Of a DNA stretch of 64,000 nt, positions 1 through 64,000 are shown piece after piece; positions within the stretch are counted from its first letter, which is position 1; every line of letters begins with the position of its first letter. The translations under genes were made by a program, and so were the position numbers. Below the pieces are notes generated by a model. The model was given only the letters and a program-made list of their open reading frames with translations, did no database searches and was not told where the DNA came from. The stretch is from Amphiscolops sp. MND2022 (Eukaryota): the NCBI GenBank assembly GCA_964187785.1, contig OZ076409.1, forward strand, positions 71,426,001-71,490,000. Reading direction: 5' to 3'.

Positions 1-1463
1 ACCTACTCGCAGTCAAACACTCAACAAATTGCATCCAATGTGAAAATAAAATTTTTTTCGGGGTCATAAGCGTTTCACAAGGATTTCTCAACTTAGTATT
101 AATTTACAAAATGGTCATTTTGAACACAATATTTTCATCGAGGCTTGTCGGCTATAGCCTTAATGTTCTAGAACGGTCCCACTGGCAACGTAGGAACCAT
201 TTATAGTAATAGAAAGTTTTAAAAAAATTTTTCATCCGGTCTTCAGTCATTTTTCAGTCATTCGGAACTTAACTTAGAAAAATTTCGACCAAAATACCCA
301 TTTTTTGTCAGGTCGAAAATTCAAATTCAGATTTTTAAGCAAAATTATTAACTCTGACGTAACCCATGGGGCCCATGATACTCAAAACAACAATTGACAC
401 TGGTATCAATGGCTCCAATAACATATGAGTCGCGATAAGACGTTATTTTGAGCAATACGTCTCAATTGAGGTAAAGATCTCGCAAGCCAGCGATCACTGT
501 GAAATGTGATTTCATCAAAAATTTACTCATTTTTGTCAATCACTATGTGCACAGAATGCGTAGGGTGCGTTTCAGCACTATAATGAGGTATTTGAAAGCA
601 TCGAGTTGCTCAAGGGGTGGTATGAGACCTTTTTGTCCCATATACTTCTGTATTTTCCAAAATTTTTAGCCCAATATCTGGAAATACAAACATGACAAAA
701 TACTTTCAACTACTTTATTCAAAGGTTACAATATAGATGAACACTGTGGTTGATCAGAAACTTTCATCTCTTTCGTTTTCCGAAATATTTCCCTTCGCAT
801 GTGTTACATTTGTAGCAGAAAAAAAATCGATACAGAAAAATACGCTATTTTGCTAATATAGAATCGCAATGATTGTGCCTAAAAACTCTTTAAACACTTC
901 TAACGCGACCTTACGCACCCAAAAAGATCGAAAAGGCTATTCACAATGGTGACTTGTGCTCTTTCAACGATCCTGACTGAACAATTTTCGCAAATTATTC
1001 AAGTACCTGTTAACTGAATCTCGTGATAGCCTTTTAAGTTGGCCTTGTGTCAACTTGGGAAGGCTATCACATCAAAAAATTTTCAACAAAAATACTTTTT
1101 GTTTATTGAAAATGACAGTCGATATATAATTTCGTGATTCTATGCTACCGTTAGTACCTTCCATTAAGTCACCTGACGATTGCATTCAGTCTTTGATAAA
1201 TACCTATGAACTCGAAGTCATATTTATAAATTTTTTGCTAAAAATAAACATCAAAATTATCCAAATTTATTAAAATTGAGTCTTTATTGTTTTTGTTTTT
1301 CTTTTTCTACTGTTATTAGGCCCATCAACTTCCTACAGCCACGCTCTCTGTCATACTGTACAACGCCACATAGTGTTGCGACGTGCACGGTCTGTGGGCA
1401 TGCCGAGGCATGCCCTTCGACGACGTATGCCGAATACCGCGGGCCTACGCCCGCGCTCCCCGG
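1..1463 (+). mobile_element. Cassette U0 (partial, 2.0-kb family)
   Basis: Aligns by eye with the 3' part of U4/U10; type A hairpin 1023-1070; core hairpin at 1396. Mobility is inferred. Confidence 0.55.
1023..1070 (+). other. Type A internal hairpin (representative)
   Basis: GTGATAGCCTT-tt-AAGTTG-gccttgtgt-CAACTT-ggg-AAGGCTATCAC imperfect inverted repeat; one copy in every 1.39-, 2.0- and 2.79-kb cassette. Confidence 0.85.
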
Positions 1464-1471
1464 CTAGGTGG
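1361..1471 (+). other. Conserved terminal core + variable tail + junction (representative of 27 copies)
   Basis: CAACGCCACA...GACG(C/T)SCAC direct repeats, hairpin GGGCATGC-CGAG-GCATGCCC (1396-1415), TTCGACGACGTATG, tail hairpin CGCGGGC-ctac-GCCCGCG, then CTAGGTGG (1464-1471). Confidence 0.9.
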
Positions 1472-3669
1472 GCGGGGGTAATTCCCCAACAAAAAAATCG
1501 GCCGGCGGGTCGGGTCCTGCCGGCCGTCCAAAATCAAAATCCTCCTAGTAGAAAACGGCATGTCAAACGAGCTATTTTTTTATTTAACCGTTAGAATTTG
1601 GGTTTAGATTGCATGCGGCCATGAAATGGCCATACGAATGGAAGTTCCTGCTGACGTTTTGCGATTGAAACACTTTATAAAAAGTTATGGCCAATTTGTC
1701 ATTCACCTAGAAGGGCAAAATGAGGAAAATTTTAACAAAGTCACTGATAACTCAAAATGTAATAATTTTTGGACTTTGACAGTGAAACAAGCTTGGAACT
1801 GTCATTTCGTGGCTGTGGCATTGCACTGAACACAAAAGATGTAAAGTTTTCACATTTTTTGAAAATTCGACATTTTTGAATTTTTTTTCACTACTATCAG
1901 TACACTATATGTCAAAAACGCCTCTGAAAAAAATTATTATTTGCTTAAAATTAGAAACCTTGGTATCCATGGTTTCCGTCAGTACCTACTCGCTGCCAAA
2001 CGCTCAACAGTTTGCATCCAATGTGAAAATATAATTTTTTTCGAGGTCATAGGTGTTTCACAAGGATTTCTCAACTTAGTATCTATTTACAAATTGGTCA
2101 TTTTGAACACATTATTTTCATCGAAGCGTGTCAGATACCACCCTAATGCTCACGAATGGGCCTACTGGCAACGTTGGAACCATTTTTAGTAATAGAAAGT
2201 ATTAAAAAAATATTTTCACCCGGTCTTCAGTCATTTTTCAGACATTCGGTACTTAACTTAGAAAAATTTCGCATCAAAAACCCATATTTGGTAGGGTCGA
2301 AATTTGAAATTCAGTTTTTTATGCAAAATTATTAACTCTGACGTAACCAGTGGAGCCCATGATACTCAAAAACACGATTGGGACTGGTATCAGTGGCTCC
2401 AATAACATATGAGCCGCGATAAGACGTTATTCAGAGCAAACGCTCTAAATCGAAGTAAACATCTCTGAAGCCTGGGATCACAGTGAAATGTGATATCACC
2501 AAAAGTTTACTCTTTTTTGTCAATCACTATGTACACAGAGTGCGTAGGGTGAGTTTCAGGACTATAATGAGGTTTTTGAAGTAATCGCGCTGCTCAAGGG
2601 GTGGTATGAGACTATTTTTTCCCATATACTACTACATTTCCATAAATTTGCAGTCCATTGTCTTGGAAAGATAACTTCACAAAAACAATTTTTCTACTCT
2701 ATTCAGTTATTAGAATAAAGTTGAACACTGTGGTTGATCAGAAATGCTCAATTCTTATGGTTTTTAAAAAAATTCCTTCGCATTCGTTACATTTGTGGAA
2801 GGAAGGTTATCAGTAGCTCCAAAAAAACGAAATTTAGCACGAACAGACATGCAACGATGCAAAGCAAAAACGTTTTTACAACTTCCGACGTCATTATTTT
2901 ACCCAAGAAGTTCGAAATTATCATTCGCATGCTGTCATTCGCTATATATACGATCGCGGTCAATTTACAAACATTTAGATTTCATTGTTCTGCTTGAAAA
3001 CCAATTTTTGTCAGGTCGAAATTTTAAATTTTGCCTGGGGAGCAATACCCTTCACGCTGAAGTAAACAGTGGGGCCCAAGTTACTCAAAAACAAGAAAGA
3101 GACTGCTACAATATGTCCTAATAACATATAGACCACGATAGTACGTTTTTCACACAAAAAACTCTCATCCGAAGTAAATATGTTGAAAGCTTTTAATCAC
3201 CGTGAGAAGTGATTTCATCAAAAAATAACTCTTTTTTGTCAATCACTATTTACACAGAATTTGTAAAGTTAGTTTGAGTCATGAAATGAGGCTTTACCGT
3301 AATATGGGTTGCTCAAGGTGTTATATAAGACAAAAACTTCCTCTTTTCTACTAGATTCTTCAAATATTTCAACCCTTTGTCACAATAAGTTAATATTCAA
3401 AATCTCTTTGAAATGTATCTTTATGTTGGGGTGAAGTCTAAGAACAATAACTATGATCGAAGAATGCTAGTACTGGTGTTTGAACCATGTCCGGATGAAC
3501 AAATCACAAAATCATCAAAAAATTGTTCCCTTTTTTGGTTATTTTGGCAGTACTAAAAATGTTAGCCGATAAATAATTTTTTCGATGGCACCATTGGATT
3601 CCTCTCAAAAAAATTGTTATATGACCTGTGTAATAACCCCGTATCTTTTCAATTTAAATATATTTAAAA

Positions 3670-5040
3670 AGCCAACTATTTTGACCAAAATCCTAAAAAT
3701 CATACCAATTCCTAAAAATTTTCAAATGCACCCCATTTGACGTATAAGATAAGCACAGAAAACTATCATATACCGATCAACTCTACTCCTATTGTAGATT
3801 ATTAGAATTTTGTTTAGAATGAATTTTGATGAATATTAAAAAAAATTTGAACCCTCCAAAAATGGGCCAAAATTACACGAAAAAATTGACCTTAAAATAC
3901 CAAATTGTCAAAAAATCATCAAAACCCAGGCTTCTTGGGGTTCTATCAACTCCGCGTGGTCAACAGAGTATGCTAAAACAGGTTTTACCCGTTTTTGAGC
4001 AATATGTGAAAAAACCGACATTTTTGGGAAAGAAAAACATACCATTTCCTAAAAAAATTCAAATGCACGTCATTTGCCGTATTAGAATAGCACAGAAAAC
4101 TATCACATACCAATCAACTCCACTTTCATTGCAGATGAACAGAATTTTGTTTAGAATAAATTTTACCGGATAATAAAAAAATTTGAATCCTTTAAAAATG
4201 GGCCAAAAATACACGAAAAAATGGACCTTAAAAATTTAAAATGTCAAAAAATCATCAAAACAACAGCTTCTTGGGGTTCTATCAACTCCACGAGGTCCAC
4301 AGAGTATGCTAAAACAGGTTTTACCCGTTTTTGAGCAATATGTGAAAAAACCGACATTTTTGGGAAAGAAAAACATACCATTTCCTAAAAAAATTCAAAT
4401 GCACGCCATTTGCCGTATGAAAATAGCACAGAAAACTATCACATACCAATCAACTCTACTTTCATTGCAGATGAACAGAATTTTGTTTAGAATGAACTTT
4501 ACCGGATAATAAAAAAATTTGATTCCTTCTAAAATGGGCCAAAATTACACGAAAAAATGGACCTTAAAATTTTAAAATGTCAAAAAATCATCAAAACTAC
4601 GGCTTCTTGGGGTTCTATCAACTCCACGTGGTCCACAGAGTATGCTTAACCCGGTTTTACCCATCTTTGAGCAAAATGTGAAAATACCGACATTTTTGGA
4701 AAAGAAAAACATGCCATTTTCTAATAAATTTCAAATGCACGCCATTTGCTGTATGAGAATAACACAGAAAGCTGTCACATACCGATCAACTCTACTTCCA
4801 TTGTAGATTATCAGAAGTTTGTTTAGAATAAATTTTGAAGGATAATAAAAAAATTTGAATCCATCAAAAATGGGCCAAAATTACACAAAAAAATTGACCT
4901 TAAAATATCAAAATGTCAAAAAATCATCAAAACCACAATTTCTTGGCGTTCTATCAACTCCATATGATACCAAACCAGGTACTGCCAATCGTTTGAGTTA
5001 TAATAAAAAAACATCTTTTTTGGCAAGAATTCCATACCAT
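3670..5040 (+). repeat. ~336-bp tandem repeat, about 4 copies, inside U1
   Basis: Anchor (A/G)CCA(T/A)TT..TAA..AA.TT.CAAATGCAC at 3704, 4041, 4377 and 4713. Confidence 0.85.
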
Positions 5041-5251
5041 AAATAATAATCATGTTCCATATAAGAAGCGAATCATTTCAGATATATACCCTGTTCATTT
5101 TTTAAATATTACCGGTTATTAATTTAATAGATGTTTTGAATGTGAGCTTCCTAAAAGGTTCAGGTGTGATGATACGTAAATCGAACCTTAGTTTCATCGA
5201 AATCTCAATTGAATATGTCCAATCTTAACCATCAGATAACAAGAAACACTT

Positions 5252-5294
5252 AAGTACATTCCATCTCCCCATCGGGGGAGATGAGAATGTACTT
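5252..5294 (+). other. Type B internal hairpin (representative)
   Basis: AAGTACATTC-CATCTCCCC-atcg-GGGGAGATG-a-GAATGTACTT imperfect inverted repeat; one copy in every 1.27-, 2.19-, 2.37- and 4.76-kb cassette. Confidence 0.85.
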
Positions 5295-6222
5295 TCGAGA
5301 AGCCAAATACGTCCAACATTCAAACTTTTGTAACTTTGTATGTAACTCCTGAAACGAAGAAGGAATAAAATTGTTTCTGGTACATCGATGAGTCTTTACT
5401 TCAGCTTCTATTTCTGCTGAACAAAACCATTCGACTCTTTTGCCGGAGTTAAGATCGATTGTATTACCCAGTGAACAAAGGCATGACTGAAAACGTTTAC
5501 TACTTTGTTCATAATTTTCCGGCCTTCCGAAATGATGAAACGTCCACATAACTAAGATAGCAAGTGAATGACTGCGAAATGCACCTTATTAGATGAGGTA
5601 AATAACGTGTAAAACTCTCCTTTATCCTAACATGAGGTTGAGTAATGATCATTTGAGAATAGTTTGATATGTGAATACAATAGTATAAAACAAGTACATT
5701 TTATATGAATAACGCCGTGGAAAGCGTTCAGAAAGGACAGTAGGCTTGTTTGGAACATGTATGTGTGGTGTCCCTTGGTGGCGTTCGCTTAGTGTATATG
5801 TCGAGGGGTATTCGAGTTGTTATGAGAGAATTTACACACAAGTCTTTTGTTTTTTGGTTTTTTTAAAAAGTCGTTAAGTACCTGCATTCTATCCCCTTCT
5901 CAGAGATGACGTGAAGTTACGTTTGCTAAATAAATGTCATCTGAAGATCACACTCCCGACGAAATTAACTATCTTAACACGTGTTTAGAATTTTAAATAA
6001 ACAACCGTATAAGATTTTTATATTTCATTGAGTTTGATGAAGTCTTTTGTTCTTCTCACTACTATTTCAACCAATACACATATCCGTTACCATATCACAT
6101 GTCTCCATTAGTACAACGCCACATAGCGTTCCGACGCCCACAGTCTGTGGGCATGCCGAGGCATGCCCTTCGACGACGTATGGCAAATGGAGCCATGCCC
6201 GCCGTCTTTACGGCGGTAGCGG

Positions 6223-9013
6223 CTAGGTGGCGGGGGGCTGTCCCCAATAGAATATAGTGAGGTAGGGTAGGGTTCCCTACCGAACATTCAGTACTGAAAG
6301 ACTCTTGTAGTATGAAAATTTTTCGATGTTTTGAGACCGATTTCGGATTCCACCCGTCAGAAGTTTATGATTTTTTGGCCCCCACCCAGATTTTGGGCAC
6401 TGATCGCCCCCCACCAGGTTCCATACCCGTGGTTTCGTTGTGACGGGTACACGAGCGACCGTTAGGGGTCAATCAGGGGGTAAAATTTATAAAAGTGTGA
6501 ATAACTTTTCCCCCCGTCGTTTTAGCAGGTCCGGTCACTAGTAAAGGTTTGTTGGGCATCATGCAGTGGGTACGGGGGGCCAAACAAAAATTTTCTATCT
6601 TGCACCGTTACGGACTTGGCCCCCCGCCCAAACCGCTATTTTACCGGAAATTGCACTTTTTGACCGGGAAGGAGTCGTCTGAGCGCGGAGTCATTTGGTA
6701 ATGTTTTGTAGAGCATCTGGAGACGTGGTGGGGGACATGTAGTTTGCCGACCCCAGTTTACCCCTCGGACGGGAAATGACCGTTATGTGAGTTTCAAAAA
6801 TGCCCCCCTCCAATTTTCCCCGCAATTTCCGGTGTGAAGGAGTCGGAATAGCGTGTCGAGTGCTATATATCAAAAGTAGCTTTAAACAAGGACCTATCAG
6901 AAACATGTGGTTTGGGACCCTTTGAACGGACCCGTTAGCCGGAAATAGGGTGACCGCCTCCTTTTTTTGGTGGTAAAACCGTAAAACGGGCATTAAAGTG
7001 TAATTATCTCGTGAACGCGTGGAGCAATCGTGTCCATCACTCCTACAAGGTTTCATACCCATGACATGGTGCCTTCAGGGGGGCAAACAGATCAGCGCTA
7101 TCTATCACCGTTACGGACTTTGCCCCCCAGCCTAACCGCTATATTACCGGAAATTGCCCTTTTTGACCGGGAAGGAGTCGTCTGAGAGTGGAGTCGTTAA
7201 GTAATGTTTTGTAGAGCATCTAGAGACGTGTTGGGGGACATGTAGTTTGCCGACCCCGGTTTACCCCTCGGACGGGAAATTACCGTTATGTGAGTTTTAA
7301 AATTGACCCCCTTCAACTTTCCCCGTTATTTCCGATGTGAAGGAGTGAGGGTAGCGCGTCGGGTGTCATATATCAAAAGTAGGTTAAGACAAGGACCAAC
7401 CGGGAACATGTTGTTTGGGACCCTCTGGCCCAACCCGTTAGCCGTTATAAGGGTGATCGCCTCCTTTTTTTACTGCTAAAACCGGAAAACGGGCATTGAG
7501 GGGTAAATATCTCGTGAACGCGTGGAGCAATCGTGTCCATCACTACTACAAGGTTTCATACCCATGATACGGTGCCTTCAGGGGGGAAAACAGATTACCG
7601 CTATATATCACCGTTACGGACTTGGCCCCCCAGCCTAACCGCTATGTGACCGGAAATGTCATTTTTTGAGCCAAAAGGGTTGGTCCCAGCGTGGGAACGT
7701 CAGGTAACTTTATGTAGAACTCAATGAGACGAGTTGGGGGATATAGTTTTAGTCACCCCCCGTTGACCCGTTGGACCGGAAACGAACGTTATGTAGTGAA
7801 AAATGTTATTTTTATACTTTTTGAAGGCCATTTAGGGCAGGAAGTATCGGTAATATGTCTTTGGACAGTATACAATGAAAGTTTTGGTGTGAAACGAGCA
7901 ATCTGAAATAACCGTTATTATGATTCGGAAGTCACACTAACAGCGAAAATGACCGTTATGTAGTGAAAATTTTTTTCACAATTTTTTTTATTTTCGATAG
8001 GTCCTTCAAGCCAGGAAGTAGCTGTATTAGGTCTTTGGTCACTTTATGATGATTGTGGTGTTGTGAGATGACCGTACGAACTTGACCGTTATAATGCCCC
8101 TGAAGTTGCGGCGGCACGAGAAATTTCAGAAAGTTTGTCTTTTCTGTGTTTTGTTGGAATAAACATGTAATTTCATCAAACCAAAGTGCATTCAGGGTGT
8201 CAGAAAGCTTCAAGAAAAGAATTTGACAGGAAACATGAGGTGAGAAATAGGAAAATGCCACGGAAATCCAACCCGTTGGGAAGTAAAGATAATAAATTGG
8301 TTTGGAAGTGCCAATCGACGTGTAATTGCGGATCATAGCTACGATATTGTCTCTTTTGTTTCTTTTTGAAGACTTTGAACATTTTCACTTTATCAGCTTG
8401 AAGTTTCGACTCCATTAACTCAATAACCGTTACAATATGATAGCCCTCAAGTTGACCTTGTGTCAACTTGAAAGGGCTATCCTTTCACAACTGCGCAGCG
8501 ACAGTGTGATTGAGTGTTTTTGTTATTATCCATAGCCAATTTGAACTTCAACAAAAGTTTAACCATAGTTAAAAAATTTCATATGATTCTTTTAAAAGGA
8601 TAAGTAAGAAACAAATGTTTGACAAAAAACTTTCAACCTTTAATTTGTGGACTGAATATCAGGAAAACCATGTCTCCTAACGTTGTTGGATGAAATTCAA
8701 CATGATTCTTTTAATAGGATAACAAAGTTTGACAACATATTTTTTTATATTCTTTCGTTGGTGCTCTACATTTTAGGAAAACGAATTTTCCAACAAATAT
8801 TGTTGGCTGATGCCTGTTCATAGTGGCTTGAAAATTTCACCAACTGTAATGCTTTTTATCAAAGGTGAAACCGCTCCTTACCGTCGCATAATGTAATTCA
8901 AGCCGACGCCCACATGCCAACATCAACGCCCACCGTCCGTAGGCATGCCGAGGCATGCCTTTCGACGACGTATGCCAAATCACGCCCCTGCGAGGTCACT
9001 AAAGCGGTAGCGG
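6223..9013 (+). mobile_element. Cassette U2 (2791 bp, 2.79-kb class)
   Basis: Near-identical to U18 but with different neighbours on both sides; type A hairpin 8439-8481; core hairpin at 8941. Confidence 0.65.
6600..7660 (+). repeat. ~503-bp tandem duplication (2 copies plus start of a third) inside U2
   Basis: CACCGTTACGGACTT at 6603, 7106 and 7609. Confidence 0.85.
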
Positions 9014-9021
9014 CTAGGTGG
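8904..9021 (+). other. Terminal core, A-T compensatory variant
   Basis: AGGCATGC-CGAG-GCATGCCT: the outer G-C pair is replaced by A-T. The same variant occurs at 19671, 48566 and 56895. Confidence 0.9.
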
Positions 9022-10993
9022 GCGGGGGTAATTCCCCTTCAAAAAATTCGGCCGGCGGGTTGGGTCCTGCCGGACGTCAAATAGTGTGAAACATCCAGTA
9101 GGAAACGGCGACATAAATCAGCGATTTTAAAATTTAACCGTTAGAATTCGGACTTGGAGTGCATGCGGCCCCAAAATGCCCATACGAATCGAAGTTCCTG
9201 CTGACGTTAAGCGATAAAAACATTTTATAAAAAGTTATGGCCCATTTTACGTTCACCTATAAGGGTAAAATGAGTAAAATTTTTACTAAGTCGCTGATAA
9301 CTCAAAATACATTAATTTTTGGACTTTGACTGTGAAACAAGCTTAGAACCTTCATTTCGTGGCTGTGGCATTGCACTGAACACAAAAGATGTAAAGTTTT
9401 TACATTTTTTGAAAATTCGACTTTTTTGATTTTTTTTCACTACTATCAGTACACTATATGTCAAAAACACCTCTGAAAAAAATTTTTATTTGCTTAAAAT
9501 TGGAAACCTTGGTATCCATGGTTTCTGTCGGAACCTACTAGCTGCCAAACACCCAACAGTTTGCATCCAATGTGAAATTAAAAATTTTTTCGAGGTCTTA
9601 GGTGTTTCACAAGGATTTCTCAACTTAGTTTCAATTTACAAATTGGTCATATTGAACACAATATTTTCATCGAGGCTTGTCGGCTATAACCTTAATGTTC
9701 TAGAACGGTCCCACTGGCAACGTAGGAACCATTTATAGTAATAGAAAGTTTTAAAAAAAATTTTTCATCCGGTCTTCGGTCATTTTTCAGTCATTCGGAA
9801 CTTAACTTAGAAAATTTTCGATCAAAATACCCAATTTTGTCAGGTCGAAAATTCAAATTCAGATTTTTAAGCAAAATTATTAACTCTGACGTAACCCATG
9901 GGGCCCATGATACTCAAAACAACGATTGACACTGGTATCAATGGCTCCAATAACATATGACTCGCGATAAGACGTTATTTTGAGCAATACGTCTCAATTG
10001 AGGTAAAGATCTCGCAAACCAGCGATCACTGTGAAATGTGATTTCATCAAAAATTTACTCATTTTTGTCAATCACTATGTGCACAGAATGCGTAGGGTGC
10101 GTTTCAGCAATATAATGAGGTTTTTGAAGGCATCGAGTTGCTCAAGGGGTGGTATGAGACATTTTCGTCCCATATACTACTGTATATTGCAAATTTTTTT
10201 AGCCCATTATCTGAAAAACTAACTTGACAAAATACTTTCAACTACTTTATTCAAAGGTTACAATGTAGATGAACCCAGTGGTTGATCAGAAACTTTCATC
10301 TCTTTCGTTTTCCGAAATAATTCCCTTCCAATGTGTTACATTTGTAGCAGGAAAAAAACCGAAACTAAAAAATACGCGATTTTGCTGAGATAGAATCGCA
10401 ACGGTTGCGCCTAAAATCTCTTTAAATACTTCTAACGCAACTTTACGGACCCAAATTGATTGAAAATGCCATTCACAATGCTGACATGTGCTCTTTCTAC
10501 GATCCTGGCTGTACAAGTTTTGCATTTTTTTCAAGTACCTGTTAACTGAACATTGTGATAGCCTTTCAAGTTGGCCTTGTGTCAACTTGGGAAGGCTGTC
10601 ACATCAAAAAACTGTCAACAAAATACCACTCGTTTATAGGAAATTGCTGTCGATGCCTAATTTTGTGATTCGATCATGTCGTGAGTTCCTTCCATCAGGT
10701 CAGCTAACAATTGGATTCAGTGTTTGATAAGAACCTATGATTTTTTTGACAATTTTCGTTTTTTCTTGCAAAGAAAAAGTACAAATAAACAATATAAAAC
10801 AAAATTGTAACCTTTAGGAAGTTTAACTTTACCTTTTTTTAACCGTTACCATCACTTTTGACCCTGTACGACCTCGCAATGTCCTTATTACAACGCCACA
10901 TAGTGTACCGACGCCCACAGTCTGTGGGCATGCCGAGGCATGCCCTTCGACGACGTATGCCGAATGCACTGCGGCTACGCCCGCAGTCACCGG
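9014..10993 (+). mobile_element. Cassette U3 (1980 bp, 2.0-kb class)
   Basis: Junction-bounded; type A hairpin ~10554-10603; core hairpin at 10926. Confidence 0.6.
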
Positions 10994-12980
10994 CTAGGTG
11001 GGCGGGGGTAATTCCCCAACAAAAATTACGGCCGGCGGGTTGGGTCCTGCCGGACGTCAAATAGCAAAGAATATCTAGTAGGAAACGGCGACACAGAATC
11101 GCGATTTTTAAATCTAACCACAATTTTTTGGACTTGGAGTGCATGCGGCCCTGAAATGCCCATACGAATCGAAGTTCCTGCTGACGTTAAGCGATTGAAA
11201 TAATATATAAAAAGTTATGGCCCATTTTTCACTCACAAAGAAGGGTAAAATGAGGAAATTTTTAACAAAGTCGCTGATAACTCAAAATGTGTTAATTTTT
11301 GGACATTGACTGTGAAACAAGCTTGGAACCTTCATTTCGTGGCTGTGGCATTGCACTGAACACAAAAGATGTAAAGTTTTTACATTTTTTGAAAATTCGA
11401 CATTTTTGAAATTTTTTTCACTACTATCAGTACCCCATATGTCAAAAACGCCTCAGAAAAAAATTTTTATTTGCTTTAAAATGGAAACCTTGGTATCCAT
11501 GGTTTCTGTCGGATCCTACTCGCAGTCAAACACCCAACAGTTTGCATCCAATGTGGAAATAAAAATTTTTTCGGGGTCATAAGCGTTTCACAAGGATTTC
11601 TCAACTTAGTTTCAATTTACAAATTGGTCACATTGAACACATTATTTTCATCGAAGCGCGTCAGATACCGCCCTAAAGCTCACGAATGGTCCTACTGGCA
11701 ACGTAGCAACCATTTATAGTAATATGAAAGATTAAAAAAAAATTTTTCACCCGGTCTTTAGTCATTTTTCAGTCATTCGGAACTTAACTTAGAAAAATTT
11801 CGACCAAAATACCCATTTTTTGTCAGGTCGAAAAAGCAAATTCAGATTTTTAAGCAAAATTATTAACCCTGACGTAACCCATGGGGCCCATGATACTCAA
11901 AACAACGATTGACACTGGTATCAATGGCTCCAATAACATATGAGTCGCGATCGGACGTTATTTTGAGCAATACGTCTCAATTGAGGTAAAGATCTCGCAA
12001 CCCAGCGATCACTGTGAAATGTGATTTCATCAAAAATTTACTCATATTTGTCAATCACTATGTGCACAGAATGCGTAGGGTGCGTTTCAGCACTATAATG
12101 AGGTTTTTGAAGGCATCGAGTTGCTCAAGGGGTGGTATGAGACATTTTTGTCCCATATACTACTGTATTTTCCAAAATTTTTAGCCCAATATCTGGAAAT
12201 ACAAACTTGACAAAATATTTTCAATTACTTTATTCAAAGGTTACAATACAGATGAACACTGTGGTTGATCAGAAACTTTCATCTCTTTCTTTTTCCGAAA
12301 TATTTCCCTTCGCATGTGTTACATTTGTAGCAGAAAAAAAAATCGAAACTAAAAAATACGCTATTTTGCTAATATACAATCGCAATGATTGTGCCTAAAA
12401 ACTCTTTAAACACTTCTAACGCAACCTTACGCACCCAAAATGATCGAAAATGCTATTCACAATGGTGACATGTGCTCTTTCAACGATCCTGGCTGGACAA
12501 GGTTTGCATATTTTTCAAGTACCTGTCAGCTGAATCTTGTGATAGCCTTTTAAGTTGGCCTTGTGTCAACTTGGGAAGGCTATCACATCAAACAACCATC
12601 AACAAAAATAATTTTTGTTTATTGGATATTACAGTTGATACCTTATTTCGTGATTCTATACTACCGTTAGTATATTCCATGAGGTCACCTTACGATTGCA
12701 TTCAGACTTTGATGAAAACCTATGAACTCAAAGTCACATTTATATATTTTTTGCCCAAAAAAATCATCAAAAACATCTAATATATATAAAATTGAGACTT
12801 TAACTTTTTTACGTTTCAAGTTTCTGCCGTTATTAGGCCCATCAACTTCCTACAGCCACGCTCTCTGTCATACCGTACAACGCCACATAGTGTTGCGACG
12901 TGCACAGTCTGTGGGCATGCCGAGGCATGCCCTTCGACGACGTATGCCGAATACCGCGGGCCTACGCCCGCGCTCTCCGG
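10994..12980 (+). mobile_element. Cassette U4 (1987 bp, 2.0-kb class)
   Basis: Junction-bounded; type A hairpin ~12538-12587; core hairpin at 12913. Confidence 0.6.
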
Positions 12981-15900
12981 CTAGGTGGGCGGGGGTAATT
13001 CCCCAACTAAAAAATCGGCCGGCGGGTAGGGTCCTGCCGGCCGTCCAAAATCAAAAATATACTAGTAGAAAACGGCCGGTCAAACGAGCTATTTTTTTAT
13101 TTAACCGTTAGAATTTGGGTTTAGATTGCATGCGGCCATGAAATGGCCATACGAATCGAAGTTCCTGCTGACGTTTTGCGATTGAAACACTTTATAAAAA
13201 GTTATGGCCAATTTCTCAGTCACCTAGAAGGGCAAAATGAGGAAAATTTTAACAAAGTCGCTGATAACTCAAAATGTGTTATTTTTTGGACTTTGACTGT
13301 GAAACAAGCTTGGAACCTTCATTTCGTGGCTGTGGCATTGCACTGAACGCAAAAGATGTAAAGTTTTTACATTTTTTGAAAATTTGATATTTTTGAAATT
13401 TTTTTCACTACTATCAGTACCATATATGTCAAAAACACCTCAGAAAAAAAATTTTATTTGCTTTAACTTGGAAACCTTGGTATCCATGGTTTCTGTCGGA
13501 ACCTACTCGCAACCAAACAACCAACAGTTTGCATCCAATGTGAAAATAAAAAATTTTTCTGGGTCATAAGCGTTTCACAAGGATTTCTCAACTTAGTATT
13601 AATTTACAAAATGGTCATTTTGAACACAATATTTTCATCGAGGCTTGTCGGCTATAGCCTTAATGTTCTAGAACGGTCCCACTGGCAACGTAGGAACCAT
13701 TTATAGTAATAGAAAGTTTAAAAAATATATTTTCACCCTGTCTTCAGTCATTTTTCAGTCATTCGGAACTTAACTTAGAAAAATTTCGACCAAAATACCC
13801 ATTTTTTGACAGATCGAAAATTCAAATTCAACTTTTTAAGCAAAATTATTAACTCTGACGTAACCAGTGGGGCTCATGATACTCAAAAACACGATTGGGA
13901 CTGGTACCAATGGCTCCAATATCATATGAGCCGCGATAAGACGTTATTTTGAGCAATACGTCTCAATTGAGGGAAACATCTCGCAAGCCTGGGATCACAG
14001 TTAAAAGTGATTTCGTCAAAAATTTACTCTTTTTCGTCAATCACTATTAACACAGAGTGCGTAGGGTGAGTTTCAGCACTATAATGCGGTTTTTGAAGGA
14101 ATCGGTCTGCTCAAGGGGTGGTATGAGACATTTTTTTTTGCATGTAGTACTATATTTCTCAAAACTTTTAGCCCATTATCTCGAAAAGCTCACTTCGCAA
14201 ATTACTTTCAGTTACTCTTTTCGAAGCTTAGAATATATATGAACACTGTGGTTGATCAGAAACTCTTGACTATTTTGTTTTTGGAAAAAAACTGCCTTGC
14301 ATGTGTTACATTAGTGGCAGGAAAAATACCAGTAGCTCCAAAAATCACAATTTTGGACGGACAGACCTGCAATGATGCAAAGCAAAAACGTTTCAACAAC
14401 TTCTGGCGCCACTTTTTTTACCCAAGAGGTTCGAAATTACTATTAACAATGCTGACATTCGCTATAAATAAGATCGAGGTCAATTTACTAACACTTAGGT
14501 TATACATTTATATCTGAGAAACCATTCTTTGTCAGGTCGCAATTTTAAATTTAGTTTGGGAAGCAATACTTTTCACTCTGAAGCAAACCGTTGGGCCCAA
14601 ATTACTCAAAAACTACAAAAAGACTGTCACCATATGCCCTAATAGCATATGAGATTCGACCGTATGTTTTTAACACAAAAACTCTCATCCGAAGTAAACA
14701 TGTTGAAAGCCTTGAATCACCGTGAGAAATGATTTCATCAAAAAATATTCCTTTTTCGTCAATCTTTATCTACACAGAACACGTTGTGTCATTTTCAGCC
14801 GTGAAATGAGCTTCTACCGTAATATGGGTTGCTCAAGGTGTTATATAAGACAAAAACTTCCTCTTTTCTACTATCTTCTTCAAATATTTCAACCCTTTGT
14901 CACAAGAAGTTAATATTCAAAATCTCTTTGAAATGTTTCTTTAGGTTGGGGTGAAGTGTTAGAACAATAATTATGATCGAAGAATGATAGTATTGGTGTT
15001 TGGACCATGTCCGGATGAACAAATTGCAAAATCATGAAAAATTTCTTACCATTTTTGGTCATTTTGTCAGTACTAAAAATGTTAGCTGAAAAAGAATTTT
15101 TTTGATGGCACCATTGGATTCCTCTCAAAAAGTTAGCTATATGAACTGTGTAATAACCCCGTATCTTTTCAATTTAAATAATTTTAAAAAGCAAACTTTT
15201 TTGACTAAAATCCTAAAAATCATACCATTTCCTAAAAAATTTCAAATGCCCCCCATTTGACGTATAAGAATAGCACAGAAAACTATCACATACCGATCGA
15301 CTCTACTTCCATTGTAGATTACCAGAATTTTGTTTAGAACAATTTTTGACGGATGCAAAAAAAATTTAAACCCTCCAAAAAAGGGCCAAAATTACACGAA
15401 AAAATTGACCTTAAAATTTTAAAATGTCGAAAAATCATCAAAACCACAGCTTCTTGGGGTTCTATCAACTCCACGTGGTCCACAGAGTATGTTAAAACAA
15501 GTTTTACCCGTATTTGAGCAATATGTGAAAAAGCCGACTTTTTTGGGAATGAAAAACATACCATTTCCTAAAAAATTTCAAACGCACCCCATTTGACGTA
15601 TAAGAATAGCACAGAAAACTATCACATACCGATCGACTCTAGTTCCATTGTAGGTTACCAGAATCTTGTTTAGAACAATTGTTGACGGATGCAAAAAAAA
15701 ATTAAACCCTCCAAAAATGGGCCAAAATTACACGAAAAAATTGACCTTAAATTTTTAAAATGTCAAAAAATCATCAAAACCACAGCTTCTTGGGGTTCTA
15801 TCAACTCCACGTGGTCCACAGAGTATGCTAAAACAGGTTTTACCTGTTTCTGAGCTATATGTGAAAAAACCGACATTTTGGGGAAGAAAAACATACCATT

Positions 15901-17744
15901 TCCTAAAAAATTTCAAATGCACGCCATTTGCCGTATGAGAATAGCACAGAAAACTATCACATACCGATCAACTCTACTTCTATTGTAGATTATCAGATTT
16001 TTGTTTAGAACAAATTTTTATGGATATAAAAAATTTTTAAACCCTCCAAAAATGAGCCAAAATAACACGAAAAAATGGACCCTAAATTTTTAAAATGTCA
16101 AAAAATTATCCAAACCACAGCTTCTTGGGGTTCTATCAGCTCCACGTGGTCCACAGAGTATGCTAAAACAGGTTTTGCCCGTTTTTGAGCAGTATATGAA
16201 AAAGCCGACATTTTTGGGGAAGAAAAACATACCATTTCCTAAATAATTTCAAATGCAGGCAATTTGCCGTATGAGAGTAGCACAGAAAACTATCACACAC
16301 CGATCAACTCTACTTCTTTTGTAGATTATCAGAATTATGTTTAGAGTAAAGTTTTATGGATATGAAAAATTTTTATACCCTCCAAAAATGGGCCAAAATG
16401 ACACGAAAAAATTGACCTCAAATTTTTAAAATGTCAAAAAATTATCCAAACCACAGCGTCTTGGCGTTCTATCAACTCCAAATGACCTTCAGAGTATACC
16501 AAACCAGGTATTGCCAATCTTTTGAGCAATATTTAAAAACACCGACTATTTGGCAAGAACACCATAATATGTTCCATATAAGAAGTGAATCATTCCACAT
16601 ATATACCCGGTCTAATATTTCCAAATTAGCGATAACATTTATACATGATGGTTTTTGAAAGTGAGCTTCATAAGAGGTTGAGATGTAATAATACGTAAAT
16701 GGACCCTAAGTTTCATTGAAATCTCAATGGAATACGTCCAATCAACTTCAATCCTAACTATTATATAACAAAAAACACTTGAGTACATTCCATCTCCCCA
16801 TCGGGGGAGATGAGAATGTACTTTTCAAAAGCCAAAAACTTCGAATTTTAAATCTTTTGTAACATTGTATGTAACTGTTGAAACGATGAACGAATAAAAA
16901 TGCTTCTAGTACCTTCATCAATTTTTGCTTCAGCTCCTATTTCTGCAGAACAAAACCAAAAGACACACTTACAGCAGTTAAGTTCGATTGTATAACTCAG
17001 TGAATAAAGGTATGACTGAGGAAGTTCACAAGTTGTTTCAAAAGTTTCCGGCCTTCCAAAATCATGAAACGTCCACACAACCAAGATAGCAAGTGAAAGA
17101 ATGCTGAATGCACCTTATTAGATGAGATAAATAATGTGTGGAACTTGCCATTATCTCAAGATGACGTTGATTTATGATCTTTTAAGGATAGTTCGATATG
17201 TGACCACAATAGTGGAAAACTTATTACTATTTGAAGAACACCGTGGAAAGCGTTCAGAAAGGACAGTATATTTGTTTCGAGCATGCATGCGTGTGTTCCT
17301 TTGGTGACGTTAGCTTAGTGTACATGACGGAGGTATTCGAGAGATTATGATAGAGTTTACTCACAAGTCTTTGTTTTTTTAAACTTTCTATGCCGTTGAG
17401 TACATTCGTAAGGTACATCCATCCCCTTCTCTGGGAATGTACGTTTGCCAAATGACTGTCATCCAAAATTCGTAATCCGGACGAGTTTAACTACATAAAC
17501 ATGTGATGAGCGTTTTCAATTCACAACCGAATAACATTTTTTTTCTCGAAAATGATGATGGTTTTGATTTTGATGTCTTCTACTTTTATCATCATGCAAA
17601 CGACCTTACCATGTCTCTCTTCTGTCGTCATTTGTACAACGCCACATAGCGTTCCGACGCCCACCGTCTGTGGGCATGCCGAGGCATGCCCTTCGACGAC
17701 GTATGCCAAATGAGCCATACCCGCACTCTGGAGTGCGGTAGCGG
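12981..17744 (+). mobile_element. Cassette U5 (4764 bp, 4.76-kb class)
   Basis: Junction-bounded; type B hairpin 16782-16822; 336-bp tandem; core hairpin at 17672. Confidence 0.6.
15190..16560 (+). repeat. ~336-bp tandem repeat, about 4 copies, inside U5
   Basis: Same repeat unit; CATACCATTTCCT near 15221, 15557, 15892 and 16228. Confidence 0.85.
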
Positions 17745-19740
17745 CTAGGTGGGCGGTAGGTTTCCCGTAGTCAAAAAAAATTGCAGGCCGGGGTAGGGGC
17801 CCTGGCCGAGGCAAAATACCATAGAAAAGGTACCAAATTATGTGAGTTTAGAAAATTGAGCCATACAAATTCTCTGAAAATTGCTGTGTGTACCCTATCG
17901 CCCAATCTAAGAACTTTTTCCTGCTGACGTTTTGCTCTCCAAATGTTACTAATATGACTTTTTGAAAAATTTATCTCTGGTTTTTCATCAAAAATAGTGA
18001 TTTTGGCAATTTTTGTGAAATATCTCTGATTGCATTAATTTTTGGACGTTGACTGTGAAACAAGGTCGGAACCATCATTTCGTGACCATGGCAATGCACT
18101 AAACACAAAAGATGTAGAGTTTTTAAATTTTTTGAAAATTTGACATTTTTAAATTTTTTTCACTACTATCAGTACCATATATGTCAAAATAACCTCAGAA
18201 AAAATTTTTTATTTTATTTAATTTAGAATCCTTGCTATCCATGGTTTCTGTTAGTATCTACTCGCTGCCAGAGACTCAACAGTTAGCATCGAATCTGAAA
18301 TTAAAAATTTTTTCGAGGTCATAGGTGTTTCACAAGGATTTCACAACATAGTCTTGTTTTACAAATAGGTCATTTACAACATCATATTTTCATCGAGGCA
18401 TGTCGGATATAGTCTTATTGCTCACGAACGGTCCTACTGGCAACGTAATAACCATTTATAGAAATATAAAGTTTTAAAAAAAATCTTTTCACCCGTTCTT
18501 CAGACATTTTTTAGACATTCGGAACTTAACTTAGAAAAATTTCGTCTCAAAAACCCATTTTTCGTCAGGTCGAAATTTGAAATTCAGCTTTTGAAGCACA
18601 AATATGCACTCTGACGTAACCAGTAGGGCCAATGATACTCAACAACACCATTGAGACTGGTATCAGTCGCTCCAAAAACATATGAGCCGTGATAAGACGT
18701 TTTTTCAACAATACTGTTCAATTGATGTAAACATCGCGGAAGCCTTGGATTACAGTGAAAGTTGATTTGAACAAAAATTTACTCTTTTTTGTCAATCACT
18801 ATGTAGACAGAATGCGTAGGGTAAGTTTCAGCACTAATATGAAGATTTGGAAGGAATCGGGTTGCTCAAGGCGTGGTATGAGACACTTTTTTCTCATATA
18901 CTAGTGTTTTTCAAAAACTTTTCGTTAAATATCTCGAAAAGCAAACATTAAAAAATACTTTCTGATATCTAATTTAAATCCTAGAATATAAATGAATCAT
19001 GTGGTTGATCAGAAACTCTCTACTTTAATGTTTCAAGAAAAAAATCCCTTCCCATGTTTTATATCTGTAGCAGTAAAAAAAGTAGACGCTAAAAAATACG
19101 CTATTTTGCTAAGATTGAATTGCAATTGTTTAGCTTTAAAACTCTTTTAATACTTCTAACGCCACCTTAAGGACTCAAGATGATTGAAAATGTCAATCAC
19201 AATGCTGACATGTAGTCTTTCTACGATCCTGGCTGGACAGATTTTGATTATTTTTCAAGTACCTGTTAACTGAATCTCGTGATAGCCTTCTAAGTTGACC
19301 TTCTGCGTCAACTTGAGAAGGCTATCACTAAAATAAACTAAATTCTGATTTGTTTGTTTGTTTGTTCCTAACGTCTTTTGGTACGATCGTCTTACGGTTA
19401 GTTGGTTAAACCAGGTCGCTTATACTTCCACAATTTTCGACCACCGTCCGTGTATTCGGTTCACACGACTTTACATTTTCAGTCGTTTGTTTTCGATAAC
19501 TATCACAATGTACTGCCATTAGCGCAAAATTCATACTAGTACTTGGTTGGTTGAAATACTTAAACAACTGTTTCCATAGTTATTCGCGGTGATGGTACAA
19601 TCCGCGCGCCTACATACCTACGGCGTCTTGTCACTACAACGCCACATAGGAAACAACGCCCATAGTCCGTAGGCATGCCGAGGCATGCCTTTCGACGACG
19701 CGCGCCAAATCTATGCGCGCCCGCACTTGTGCGGTAGCTG
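17745..19740 (+). mobile_element. Cassette U6 (1996 bp, divergent 2.0-kb class)
   Basis: Divergent head and an unrelated-looking 3' segment (~19330-19630) but the same length class; type A hairpin 19279-19328; core hairpin at 19671. Confidence 0.6.
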
Positions 19741-21729
19741 CTAGGTGGGCGGGGGTAATTCCCCAACAAAAAAATCGGCCGGCGGGTCGGGTCCTGCCGG
19801 CCGTCCAAAATCAAAATCCTCCTAGTAGAAAACGGCATGTCAAACGAGCTATTTTTTTATTTAACCATACGAATTTCACCATTTTTTGCATGCGGCCCTG
19901 AAATGGCCATACGAGACGAAGTTCCTGCTGTCGTTTTGCGATGTAAATGTTTTATAAAAAGTTATGGCCGATTTGTCATTCACCTAGAAGGGTAAAATGA
20001 GGAAAATTTTAACAAAGTCGCTGATAACTCAAAATGTGTTAATTTTTGGACTTTGACTGTGAAACAAGCTTGGAACCTTCATTTCGTGGCTGGGGCATTG
20101 GACTGAACACAAAAGATGTCAAGTTTTTACGTTTTTTGAAAATTCGACATTTTTGAAATTTTTTTCACTACTATCAGTACCCCATATGTCAAAAACACCT
20201 CAGAAAAAAATTTTTATTTGCTTTAAATTGGAAACCTTGGTATCCATGGTTTCTGTCGGAACCTACTCGCAGCCAAACACCCAACAGTTTGCATCCAATG
20301 TGAAAATAAAAATTTTTTCGGGGTCATAAGCGTTTCACAAGGATTTCTCAACTTAGTATTAATTTACAAAATGGTCATTTTGAACATAATATTTTCATCG
20401 AGGCTTGTCGGCTATAGCCTTAATGTTCTAGAACGGTCCCACTGGCAACGTAGCAACCATTTATAGTAATATAAAAGGTTAAAAAATTTTTTTCACCCGG
20501 TCTTTAGTCATTTTTCAGACATTCGGAACATAACTTAGAAAATTTTCGACCCAAATACCCATTTTTTGTCAGGTCGAAACTTAAAATTCAGCTATTAAAG
20601 CAAAATTATTTACTCTGACGTAACCAGTGGGGCCCATGATACTCAAAAACACCATTGGCACTGGTACCAATGGCTCCAATAACATATGAGTCGCGATAAG
20701 ACGTTATTTTGAGCAATACGTCTCAATTGAGGTAAAGATCTCGCAAGCCAGCGATCACTGTGAAATGTGATTTCATCAAAAATTTACTCATTTTTGTCAA
20801 TCACTATGTGCACAGAGTGCGTAGGGTGAGTTCCAGCACTATAATGAGGTTTTTGAAGGCATCGGGTTGCTCAAGGGGTGGTATGAGACATTTTTTTCCT
20901 ATATACTACTGTGTTTTCCAAAACTTTTAGCCCATTATCAGGAAAAAATAATTTGACAAAATACTTCCAACTACTTTATTCAAAGGTTACAATATAGATG
21001 AACACTGTGGTTGATCAGAAACTTTCATCTCTTTCGTTTTCCGAAATAATTCCCTTCGAATGTGTTACATTTGTAGCCGAAAAAAAAACCGAAACTAAAA
21101 AATACGCGATTTTGCTGAGATAGAACCGGGATAATTGTGTCTAAATACTCTTTAAAAACTTCTAACGCGACCTTACGGACCCAAAAGGATTAAAAATGCC
21201 ACTCACAATGCTGACATGTGCTCTTTCGACGATCCTGGTTGGACAAGTTTTGCAAATTTTTCAAGTACCTGTTAACTGAATTTTGGGATAGCCTTTTAAG
21301 TTGGCCTTGTGTCAACTTGGGAAGGCTATCACATCAAAAAACTTTCAACAAAAATACTTTTTGTTTATTGGATATTGCTGTCGATACCTTTTTTTGTGAT
21401 TCTATACTACCGTTAGTATATTCCATCAGGTCACCAGACGATTGTATTCAGTATTTGATAAAAACTTATGAACTCGAAGTCTTTTTCATATGTTTTTTGT
21501 TCAAAAAAATTATCAAAAAAATTTATATTATAAACAATTGAGTCTTTAACTTTTTTATTTCCCAATTTTCCAGTGTTATTAGGCTCATCAACTTCCTACT
21601 GCCACATCCAGACATTAGTACAACGCCACAAAGTGTTGCGACGTCCACCGTCTGTGGGCATGCCGAGGCATGCCCTTCGACGACGTATGCCAAAAATAGC
21701 GCCCTCCGCGGTCACTACCGCGGTAGCAG
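19741..21729 (+). mobile_element. Cassette U7 (1989 bp, 2.0-kb class)
   Basis: Junction-bounded; type A hairpin ~21289-21332; core hairpin at 21656. Confidence 0.6.
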
Positions 21730-23712
21730 CTAGGTGGGCGGGGGTAATTCCCCAACAAAAATTACGGCCGGCGGGTTGGGTCCTGCCGGACGTCAAATAG
21801 CAAAGAATATCTAGTAGGAAACGGCGACACAGAATCGCGATTTTTAAATCTAACCACAATTTTTTGGACTTGGAGTGCATGCGGCCCTGAAATGCCCATA
21901 CGAATCGAAGTTCCTGCTGACGTTAAGCGATTGAAATAATATATAAAAAGTTATGGCCCATTTTTCACTCACATAGAAGGGTAAAATGAGGAAATTTTTA
22001 ACAAAGTCGCTGATAACTCAAAATGTGTTAATTTTTGGACATTGACTGTGAAACAAGCTTGGAACCTTCATTTCGTGGCTGTGGCATTGCACTGAACACA
22101 AAAGATGTAAAGTTTTTACATTTTTTGAAAATTCGACATTTTTGAAATTTTTTTCACTACTATCAGTACCCCATATGTCAAAAACGCTTCAGAAAAATTT
22201 TTTTATTTGCTTTAAATTGGAAACCTTGGTATCCATGGTTTCTGTCGGAACCTACTCGCAGCCAAACACTCAACAGTTTGCATCCAATGTGAAAATAAAA
22301 TTTTTTCGGGGTCATAAGCGTTTCACAAGGATTTCTCAACTTGGTATTATTTTACAAAATGGTCATTTTGAACACAATATTTTCATCGAGGCTTGTCGGC
22401 TATAGCCTTAATGTTCTAGAACGGTCCCACTGGCAACGTAGGAACCATTTATAGTAATGGAAAGTAATAAAAAAATATTTTCACCCGGTCTTCAATCATT
22501 TTTCAGTCATTCGGAACTTAACTTAGAAAATTTTCGACCCAAATACCCATTTTTTGTCATGTCGAAAATTAAAATTCAGCTATTAAAGCAAAATTATTTA
22601 CTCTGACGTAACCAGTGGGGCCCATGATACTCAAAAACACCATTGTCACTGGTACCAATGGCTCCAATAACATATGAGTCGCGATAAGACGTTATTTTGA
22701 GCAATACGTCTCAATTGAGGTAAAGATCTCGCAAGCCAGCGATCACTGTGAAATGTGATTTCATCAAAAATTTACTCATTTTTGTCAATAACTATGTGCA
22801 CAGAGTGCGTAGGGTGAGTTCCAGCACTATAATGAGGTTTTTGAAGGCATCGGGTTGCTCAAGGGGTGGTATGAGACATTTTTTTCCTATATACTACTGT
22901 GTTTTCCAAAACTTTTAGCCCATTATCAGGGAAAAATATATTGACAAAATATTTTCAACTACTTTATTCAAAGGTTACAATATAGATGAACACTGTGGTT
23001 GATCAGAAACTTTCATCTCTTTCGTTTTCCGAAATAATTCCCTTCGAATGTGTTATATTTGTAGCCGGAAAAAAAAACGAAACTAAAAATTACGCGATTT
23101 TGCTGAGATAGAACCGGGATAATTGTGTCTAAATACTCTTTAAATACTTCTAACGCGACCTTACGGACCCAAAAGGATTAAAAATGCCACTCACAATGCT
23201 GACATGTGCTCTTTCGACGGATCCTGGCTGGACAAGTTTTGCAAATTTTTCAAGTACCTGTCAGCTAAATCTTGTGATAGCCTTTTAAGTTGGCCTTGTG
23301 TCAACTTGGGAAGGCTATCACATCAAAAAACTTTCAACAAAAATACTTTTTGTTTATTGGATATTGCTGTCGATACCTTTTTTTGTGATTCTATACTACC
23401 GTTAGTATATTCCATCAGGTCACCAGACGATTGTATTCAGTATTTGATAAAAACTTATGAACTCGAAGTCTTTTTCATATGTTTTTTGTTCAAAAAAATT
23501 ATCAAAAAAATTTATATTATAAACAATTGAGTCTTTAACTTTTTTATTTCCCAATTTTCCAGTGTTATTAGGCTCATCAACTTCCTACTGCCACATCCAG
23601 ACATTAGTACAACGCCACAAAGTGTTGCGACGTGCACGGTCCGTGGGCATGCCGAGGCATGCCCTTCGACGACGTATGCCGAATGCACTGCGGCGACGCC
23701 CGCAGTCCAAGG
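21730..23712 (+). mobile_element. Cassette U8 (1983 bp, 2.0-kb class)
   Basis: Junction-bounded; type A hairpin ~23274-23322; core hairpin at 23645. Confidence 0.6.
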
Positions 23713-63989: not shown

Positions 63990-64000
63990 CTAGGTGGTCG

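Follow-up and report, generated by a model that had tools for sequence, protein, structure and literature searches.

A conserved core hairpin as the probable 3'-end signal of Helitron-like elements in mixed head-to-tail arrays of an Amphiscolops genome

Results

Modules, seams and a shared core

The window, by which we mean the whole 64-kb stretch of Amphiscolops sp. MND2022 DNA analyzed here, is filled by repeated modules (Table 1), and a tblastn search found no RepHel coding sequence anywhere in it. A 49-mer core at 1381-1429 recurs in 27 full copies on the plus strand with up to 12 mismatches allowed, and the same search of the minus strand gave none, bearing out a sequence-only reading that had described 27 near-invariant cores. 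Each of the 27 is followed 28-41 nt downstream by a CTAG/GTG seam, and all 27 window modules begin with GTG. In a larger sample of 197 cores (the count after dropping five opposite-strand double counts), 187 precede CTAG/GTG, one of which (L011) reads into a host GTG; over 221 seams the end tetranucleotide is CTAG in 196 and CTGG in 20. The window belongs to contig C1. Genome-wide, an exact 29-nt core has 4,733 copies in 1.07 Gb versus 0 for the reversed control. The core occurs on all 13 large contigs, and its place ahead of the element end is constant in both solos and autonomous copies.

Table 1. Features of the window and of the autonomous elements that share its core
Feature	Position	Strand	Remarks
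Mixed head-to-tail array	1..64000	+	26 complete non-coding modules, 1.27-4.77 kb, several families, 27 seams
ACGCC(C)AC-type repeats (two), 5' of stem	1363-1369 and 1381-1388	+	Loosely conserved (window sequence; variants counted in 197 cores)
Core hairpin GGGCATGC-CGAG-GCATGCCC	1396..1415	+	Putative subterminal signal of element end; also two tandem GGCATGCC palindromes
Conserved TTCGACGACGTATG just 3' of stem	1416..1429	+	197-core sample
Family-specific second hairpin in variable tail	1438..1455	+	Found in some tails only
Seam CTAG/GTG	1464..1470	+	One module ends at 1467, next begins at 1468; predicted nick site
5' head hairpin, GGGN(A)GGGNCC apex, covarying stem	1499..1526	+	Core and non-core families alike; predicted origin
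Non-autonomous 4.76-kb module	1468..6226	+	98.4% identical to 29693-34454; internal 336-bp tandem repeat 3696-4962
2.79-kb module	6227..9017	+	99.8% identical to 45853-48642
Second copy of 2.79-kb module	45853..48642	+	Neighbours on both sides differ from those of 6227-9017
Degenerate internal core	50549..50597	+	196 nt upstream of working core
Autonomous element, 14.1 kb	C1:71.60-71.62 Mb		Intact ORF pointing head to core
Autonomous element, 17.0 kb	C5:22.67-22.69 Mb		Intact ORF pointing head to core
Autonomous element	C1:74.33 Mb		Intact ORF toward core; sequence read without its head

Several smaller features of the modules were noted along the way. Further 336-bp tandem repeats lie inside 4.76-kb modules at 15216-16566, 31924-33190 and 38665-39930, and the 2-kb family contains a more diverged stretch related to this repeat. 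Just right of the window is a 152-bp mini-module (L020:1329-1545) in which the start of a head is fused to a core. At C1:23.975-23.980 Mb (L007), plus and minus arrays meet tail to tail, with the last unit of each cut short. The second hairpin of the variable tail reaches z below -2 in 13 of 69 distinct ends and is not general, with a mean z of -0.45 over the 69 ends, some of which are host flanks.

Variation within the core

The sequence-only reading had also proposed compensatory changes in the core stem, with A-T variants at 8941, 19671, 48566 and 56895 and a G.T copy at 63919. The positions are correct and the paired changes are real, but they concern essentially one base pair and few independent events. 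Among the 197 sampled cores the outer stem pair is G-C in 166, A-T in 30 and A-A in one, with the other stem positions nearly invariant, and 6 of 22 tail clusters contain both the G-C and the A-T type. The cores at 8941 and 48566 close two modules that are 99.8% identical, and the degenerate cores at 50564, 58874 and 63723, correctly reported before, sit inside mutually related 2.2-kb modules; because the variant and degenerate copies belong to related modules, the window represents few independent stem events. Degenerate cores lie about 196 nt 5' of working cores in five window modules (besides the tabulated one, near 54330, 56700, 58860 and 63708, the first two of these being new) and are likely to be abandoned older element ends. 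Mixed outer pairs are rare across the genome, and the excess of G.T (10) over A.C (1) weakly favours pairing on the plus strand; the outer-pair pattern as a whole would fit plus-strand pairing and also a simple linkage of two sites 19 nt apart. Compared with shuffles, the 49-mer folded as DNA shows a modest gain (z of -1.6 on the plus strand and -2.2 on the minus), and two core variants give -3.0 and -2.4.

GGCATGCC is a palindrome in its own right and occurs twice in the core, and a tandem double-strand protein site would fit the core sequence as well as the hairpin does. The direct ACGCC(C)AC repeats described upstream of the stem are present, if loosely conserved, and are likely to be protein-binding boxes. 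An overlapping GCCCAC hairpin, thought to compete with the stem in many copies, is not conserved: ACGCCCAC occurs in only 105 of the 197 cores and is broken by the A-T variants. At 39 genomic sites one 10-nt repeat of the core is missing and a single 10-bp palindrome remains; another element follows only 7 of the 39. We considered these hairpin-collapsed cores as proof that the core attracts insertions and set them aside; age confounds the comparison because those checked belong to older families without close matches in the arrays. Separately, in a marine sequencing run from one study, many short contigs match only the core (window 1386-1438), at high depth and with differing flanks, and the core seems to be conserved in a relative.

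The head hairpin, element ends and host target

Another hairpin is found in the head of the following module, 30-60 nt beyond the seam. Across 39 distinct heads its stem varies freely yet stays paired: 75% of cells are paired versus 61% in shuffles and 62 double changes are found versus 33.5 (0 of 500 shuffles as high), and arms with their own partner reach -8.6 kcal/mol versus -5.7 when swapped (0 of 10,000), kinship being ignored in both comparisons. Judged from these alignments, it is the 5' head hairpin, not the core, that displays clear covariation.

Elements run GTG...CTRG, with hairpins at both ends. Asymmetric terminal inverted repeats (TIRs) are absent, the complementarity of an element's own ends being 5.07 versus 5.29 for shuffled ends over 161 units. 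In host DNA the target is CTNG^NT. For instance, CTNG precedes 11 of 15 host-flanked located heads (solos and array starts); a search whose pattern imposed CTYG found 84 heads after it versus 1 in the control; and T occupies +2 after 35 of 39 ends (32 of these picked for non-G at +1). One insertion into a repeated retrotransposon lies between CTTG and GTC, and nothing is duplicated or lost relative to 68 uninterrupted counterparts; the absence of target-site duplication is documented by this one empty-site comparison, with which solo flanks agree. Because insertion sites read CTNG^NT, the host target resembles the junction that the elements themselves form. Sites of this kind must be plentiful in the host genome. 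Only 74 element ends genome-wide are followed by non-G, compared with the 4,733 cores, and nearly all cores therefore abut another element. One solo (L014) ends in CTTG like its target; a close relative ends in CTAG, other solos retain their own ends, and the CTTG is probably a point change.

Autonomous elements with the same core

Intact RepHel frames of 2,350-2,603 aa, found by a Pfam search of the genome plus fetched stretches, are bounded by the same seams. Within such arrays, three divergent autonomous elements terminate in this core, their ORF and core being uninterrupted by a seam; their Reps are only ~41-47% identical over 300 aa. The encoded protein (2,300-2,600 aa) joins an HUH/Y2 Rep to a Pif1 helicase, often with a GIY-YIG-like C-terminal domain. 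Rep motifs I-III (e.g. EFQ...HIH, YIAKY) and Walker A are intact. In all four genome proteins Helitron_like_N and PIF1 score above the Pfam cut-offs, and the GIY-YIG match falls just below its cut-off in two and is absent from the other two. All RepHel ORFs examined run from head to core. Unrelated tails, often with no clear hairpin, are found on several modules of the same arrays and on further autonomous families, whose proteins measure 2,373-2,386 aa; we read the core as one of several tail types and the head, not the core, as what all families have in common. A 3-kb family has ~910 bp of its head (95-97%) and ~90 bp of its tail in common with the 14-kb element, and we take it to be a deletion derivative of that element.

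A protein search of the genome gave 131 matches, of which 36, all on the plus strand, fall in C1:70.5-76.5 Mb. Among the core matches listed, 76 lie in this same interval, again all on the plus strand, and one head is on the minus strand. The sampled stretches of this ~6-Mb interval of a 104-Mb chromosome were arrays. Further clusters of intact RepHel genes of this clade lie at C2:102.0-103.9, C3:2.4-3.9, C7:65.2 and C4:77.1-77.3 Mb, some of them near contig ends. Accessory ORFs of 320-390 aa occur downstream of RepHel (L040:1894-3000, plus; L038:525-1670, plus; L045:8556-9527, minus), with no Pfam match; the Atlas neighbours of the L040 ORF are mostly OB-fold single-strand-binding proteins (0.86-0.88), which we treat as a lead only. 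A second accessory ORF of ~220 aa (L040:237-887, plus, with no Pfam match; L008:4363-5028, minus) has a GASN motif that, judged by eye, resembles SGNH hydrolases.

Proposed mechanism and its polarity

With module boundaries, the common core of three autonomous elements, the CTNG^NT target and independent neighbours seen directly, we consider it quite probable that the core is a conserved 3'-subterminal signal of a Helitron-like element, likely the site where its Rep-helicase stops and cuts a second time, and that arrays grow by insertion at seams. By analogy with Helraiser and IS91, the 5' head hairpin would guide Rep to nick the plus strand at CTNG^GTG; this strand would then be peeled off by the helicase from the head toward the core, where unwinding would stop once the core has folded or been bound; and the strand would be cut after CTRG and closed as a circle with a CTRG-GTG junction. 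Host CTNG^NT sites would be used occasionally and would seed arrays. Existing seams, at which both head and tail signals are complete, would serve much better as targets, and since a seam mimics the element's own circle junction a new copy would insert there. Non-coding modules would borrow the enzyme in trans. That seams are the preferred targets we infer from the distribution of ends.

The earlier comparison of the core with Rep-bound rolling-circle origins was right to tie it to a rolling-circle Rep, but a terminating end is more likely than an origin. A CRESS/plasmid origin can be rejected: the loop is CGAG, the CRESS nonamer is missing from the hairpin, as had been stated, and not enriched (29 found versus 29.5 expected), and the viral contigs searched contain neither the core nor the clade Rep.

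Doubt about the polarity comes from solos. Some 17 of the 39 solo ends selected by core are head-less yet keep a precise CTRG end, an outcome that a dispensable-terminator model does not predict; head-selected solos are mostly complete. Either copying may start at the core end, or integration may fix the tail first and sometimes abort; the latter is favoured because truncation points do not follow the CTNG rule. The former belongs to the opposite polarity, in which the core and its ACGCC(C)AC repeats would form a Rep-bound origin, with a minus-strand start at CTRG and the GTG head as terminator. We hold this to be rather unlikely. The core is indeed the most invariant stretch and the only part at high depth in the marine run, the head-less solos with their complete-tailed counterparts point the same way, and Bao and Jurka, in the available text of PMC3627910, inferred likewise for 5'-truncated Helitron2 copies. 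However, it is the GTG head that borders on the host target tetranucleotide, just as oriIS does in the portion of PMC13181058 that treats IS91, and CTAG is the Helraiser terminator end as described in PMC4778049. Moreover, every RepHel ORF examined points from head to core, the head is universal across families and the core is not, and truncations that ignore the CTNG rule fit poorly with a start at the core.

How the arrays grow

Neighbour relations were compared among 161 complete units, drawn from retrieved arrays as well as the window. Of 36 pairs at least 98% identical, 31 share neither neighbour, five share one and none shares both; at 95% identity (n = 102) the corresponding numbers are 87, 15 and 0. 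Of 119 adjacent pairs, 6 belong to a single 95% cluster. These patterns describe what appears to be an array of separately placed cassettes, not a higher-order satellite. Because near-identical modules differ in their neighbours, one-at-a-time insertion at seams is the likely mode of growth; neighbours could also become reshuffled through recombination at the common seam. A match of at least 97% to another unit exists for the first unit in 8 of 14 arrays and for the last unit in 2 of 10, which is suggestive of insertion in front of heads, though not significant and read from best-match identity, a poor clock.

Arrays might instead come from rolling-circle concatemers and read-through with later recombination at the common seam or core, and not from targeted insertion. 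Plants and bats have tandem Helitron arrays, as cited in PMC5876387, some neighbour pairs are kept (the five that share one side), and three Reps of ~41-47% identity with a single core suggest end swapping. Concatemers predict runs of a single family, however, which the 6 of 119 adjacent pairs scarcely provide, and recombination alone would hardly yield small host-flanked arrays of two to four unrelated modules (L161, L167, L170); we judge this origin improbable. A host protein, with a CENP-B-box-like or centromeric site, might also keep the core in a satellite-like domain independently of transposition. The ~6-Mb cluster of nearly uniform orientation on a 104-Mb chromosome would suit such a role, and Helitrons are reported in centromeres in the available parts of PMC13404089 and PMC9646362. 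Against it, the place of the core ahead of the element end is the same on all 13 large contigs, and higher-order repeats are absent from the 161 sampled units, which leaves this explanation very unlikely. We give next to no credence to the core as a structured RNA gene or ribozyme in tandem, a reading raised earlier for which an 8-bp stem with tetraloop and TTCGAC (presumably akin to part of a Pol III B-box) might speak: the Rfam search gave nothing at the gathering threshold (only three weak bacterial sRNA matches far below it), ARAGORN found no tRNA, stem variation is almost nil, and a transposon-end position explains the core fully.

Placement of the lineage

To place these elements we built an unrooted Rep and helicase tree of 58 rows (references from two single-query searches; 3 of 61 rows dropped for want of a motif anchor). 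HLE1 (16 rows, 100/100), HLE2 (21 rows, 98/100; monophyletic, though these rows may not span all four published subgroups) and the present clade (21 rows, 100/100) separate. With a Rep profile of the clade, scores range from 1e-45 to 1e-232 for its own members, lie at 1e-5 to 1e-2 for the HLE2-type proteins of this genome and exceed 0.2 for HLE1; the profile matches 287 clusters at E <= 1e-30, a hagfish protein among them, and 40 metagenome loci, with aquatic metagenomes among the sources. A GIY-YIG-like C-terminal pattern occurs in 41 of 81 long clade proteins versus 0 of 240 HLE1/HLE2 hits, and GIY-YIG exceeds the Pfam cut-off in two metagenome members. DUF6570 is found in none of four clade proteins versus all four HLE2-type proteins of this genome. 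One metagenome contig (L115) has a CTGG/GTG head, here followed by G, and a hairpin with the head-hairpin motif of the window before a clade ORF of ~32% identity, and another (L126) has a hairpin similar to the head hairpin. Among prokaryote genomes the single clade Rep match, at 34%, comes from a bacterial MAG (L151, a 2.5-kb contig) and is likely eukaryotic carry-over. Based on ends, target and tree position, we regard this as a Helitron-like lineage outside the sampled HLE1 and HLE2.

Some observations on relatives stand apart from this placement. Metagenome members L130, L139, L145 and L142 adjoin SET, Ulp1 protease or ankyrin ORFs, and several members have RepHel split across adjacent frames. 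Ordinary HLE1 and HLE2 families with DUF6570, OTU and APE endonuclease (L050, L103-L110) coexist with the clade in this genome.

Discussion

The general view of Helitrons is of elements that insert almost anywhere (at AT or TT) and belong to two clades, joined of late by a third from ciliates. The lineage described here, represented by hundreds of protein clusters, seems to select its own junctions as targets and has produced polarised arrays of very large size in which dozens of transposase genes are intact. Insertion at seams would let copies pile up while sparing host genes. If confirmed, such a lineage would offer a single-strand transposase with natural site selectivity and would show how transposons can give rise to repeat domains on the scale of chromosomes. 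It would also link eukaryotic Helitrons to the target rules of bacterial IS91, whose transposase is small and lacks a helicase, and represent a class that annotation tools relying on TC...CTRR ends or TIRs would miss. With ends this clean and many ORFs intact, the mechanism lends itself to direct testing.

The comparisons that follow use the available parts of the papers cited. As in HLE1 elements such as Helraiser (PMC4778049, PMC5876387, PMC11417382), we find an HUH/Y2 Rep-Pif1 fusion, a subterminal hairpin, a CTRR 3' end, no target duplication and non-autonomous derivatives. Unlike HLE1, the 5' end is GTG with a covarying hairpin and not TC, the target is CTNG^NT and not A^T, and the protein (2,300-2,600 aa, on a separate tree branch) often has the GIY-YIG-like C-terminus, a pattern found in 0 of 120 HLE1 hits. 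The core lies ~50-60 nt from the element end versus 11 nt for the Helraiser hairpin (PMC4778049).

Hairpins at both ends, a large RepHel and 5'-truncated copies recall HLE2 (Helitron2/Helentron; PMC3627910, PMC11417382), as does OTU in some relatives, and some Helitron2 are described there as inserting after the tetranucleotide TTTT. Unlike HLE2, however, the present elements have no asymmetric TIRs, no TT target, no APE endonuclease and no DUF6570, an HLE2 marker according to PMC11417382, and they fall outside the 21 sampled HLE2 rows. HELIANO reports a captured GIY-YIG in one moss HLE2 family and leaves at least four small clusters unclassified, which could be the same group as this clade.

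A third clade from Paramecium (PMC13085455) likewise branches outside HLE1 and HLE2, with strong orientation bias, a terminal tetranucleotide (CCAA) that matches its target repeat and many non-autonomous copies with internal satellites. It differs in its CCAA ends and telomeric-repeat targets, as against CTRG ends and ordinary host flanks here, and in ORFs of 9-10 kb versus 7.0-7.8 kb, the two clades being compared by description; the string 'GIY' does not occur in the main text or seven supplements of that paper.

The target rule resembles that of IS91 (PMC13181058), in which a tetranucleotide target (CTTG, CTCG) lies beside one end and a matching tetranucleotide closes the other (for example, CTTG target with CTCG end), with palindromes at both ends and no duplication. 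The differences are a fused Pif1 helicase here versus a small prokaryotic transposase without one (PMC10288648), and mixed arrays, of which the available text of PMC13181058 makes no mention for IS91. Replitrons (PMC10288648) are also eukaryotic HUH transposons that insert in one orientation 3' of a short target (RG), but they have a Y1 Rep without helicase and terminal direct repeats and are described from plants, algae and protists. Homotypic Helitron tandems (PMC5876387) and centromeric Helitrons (PMC13404089, PMC9646362) are already known; the literature searched, which excluded subscription papers and Repbase entries, contained no account of GTG...CTRG ends, this target rule, self-targeting or a RepHel-GIY-YIG clade, and came closest with the Paramecium third clade (PMC13085455) and the unclassified HELIANO clusters. 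Taken together, we lean toward the view that these elements represent a widespread, unnamed major RepHel-GIY-YIG lineage with an IS91-type target rule, whose best target would be its own seams and which would be marked by end-swapping and by megabase, integron-like cassette arrays that many families would build as havens of their own, maybe centromeric or heterochromatic.
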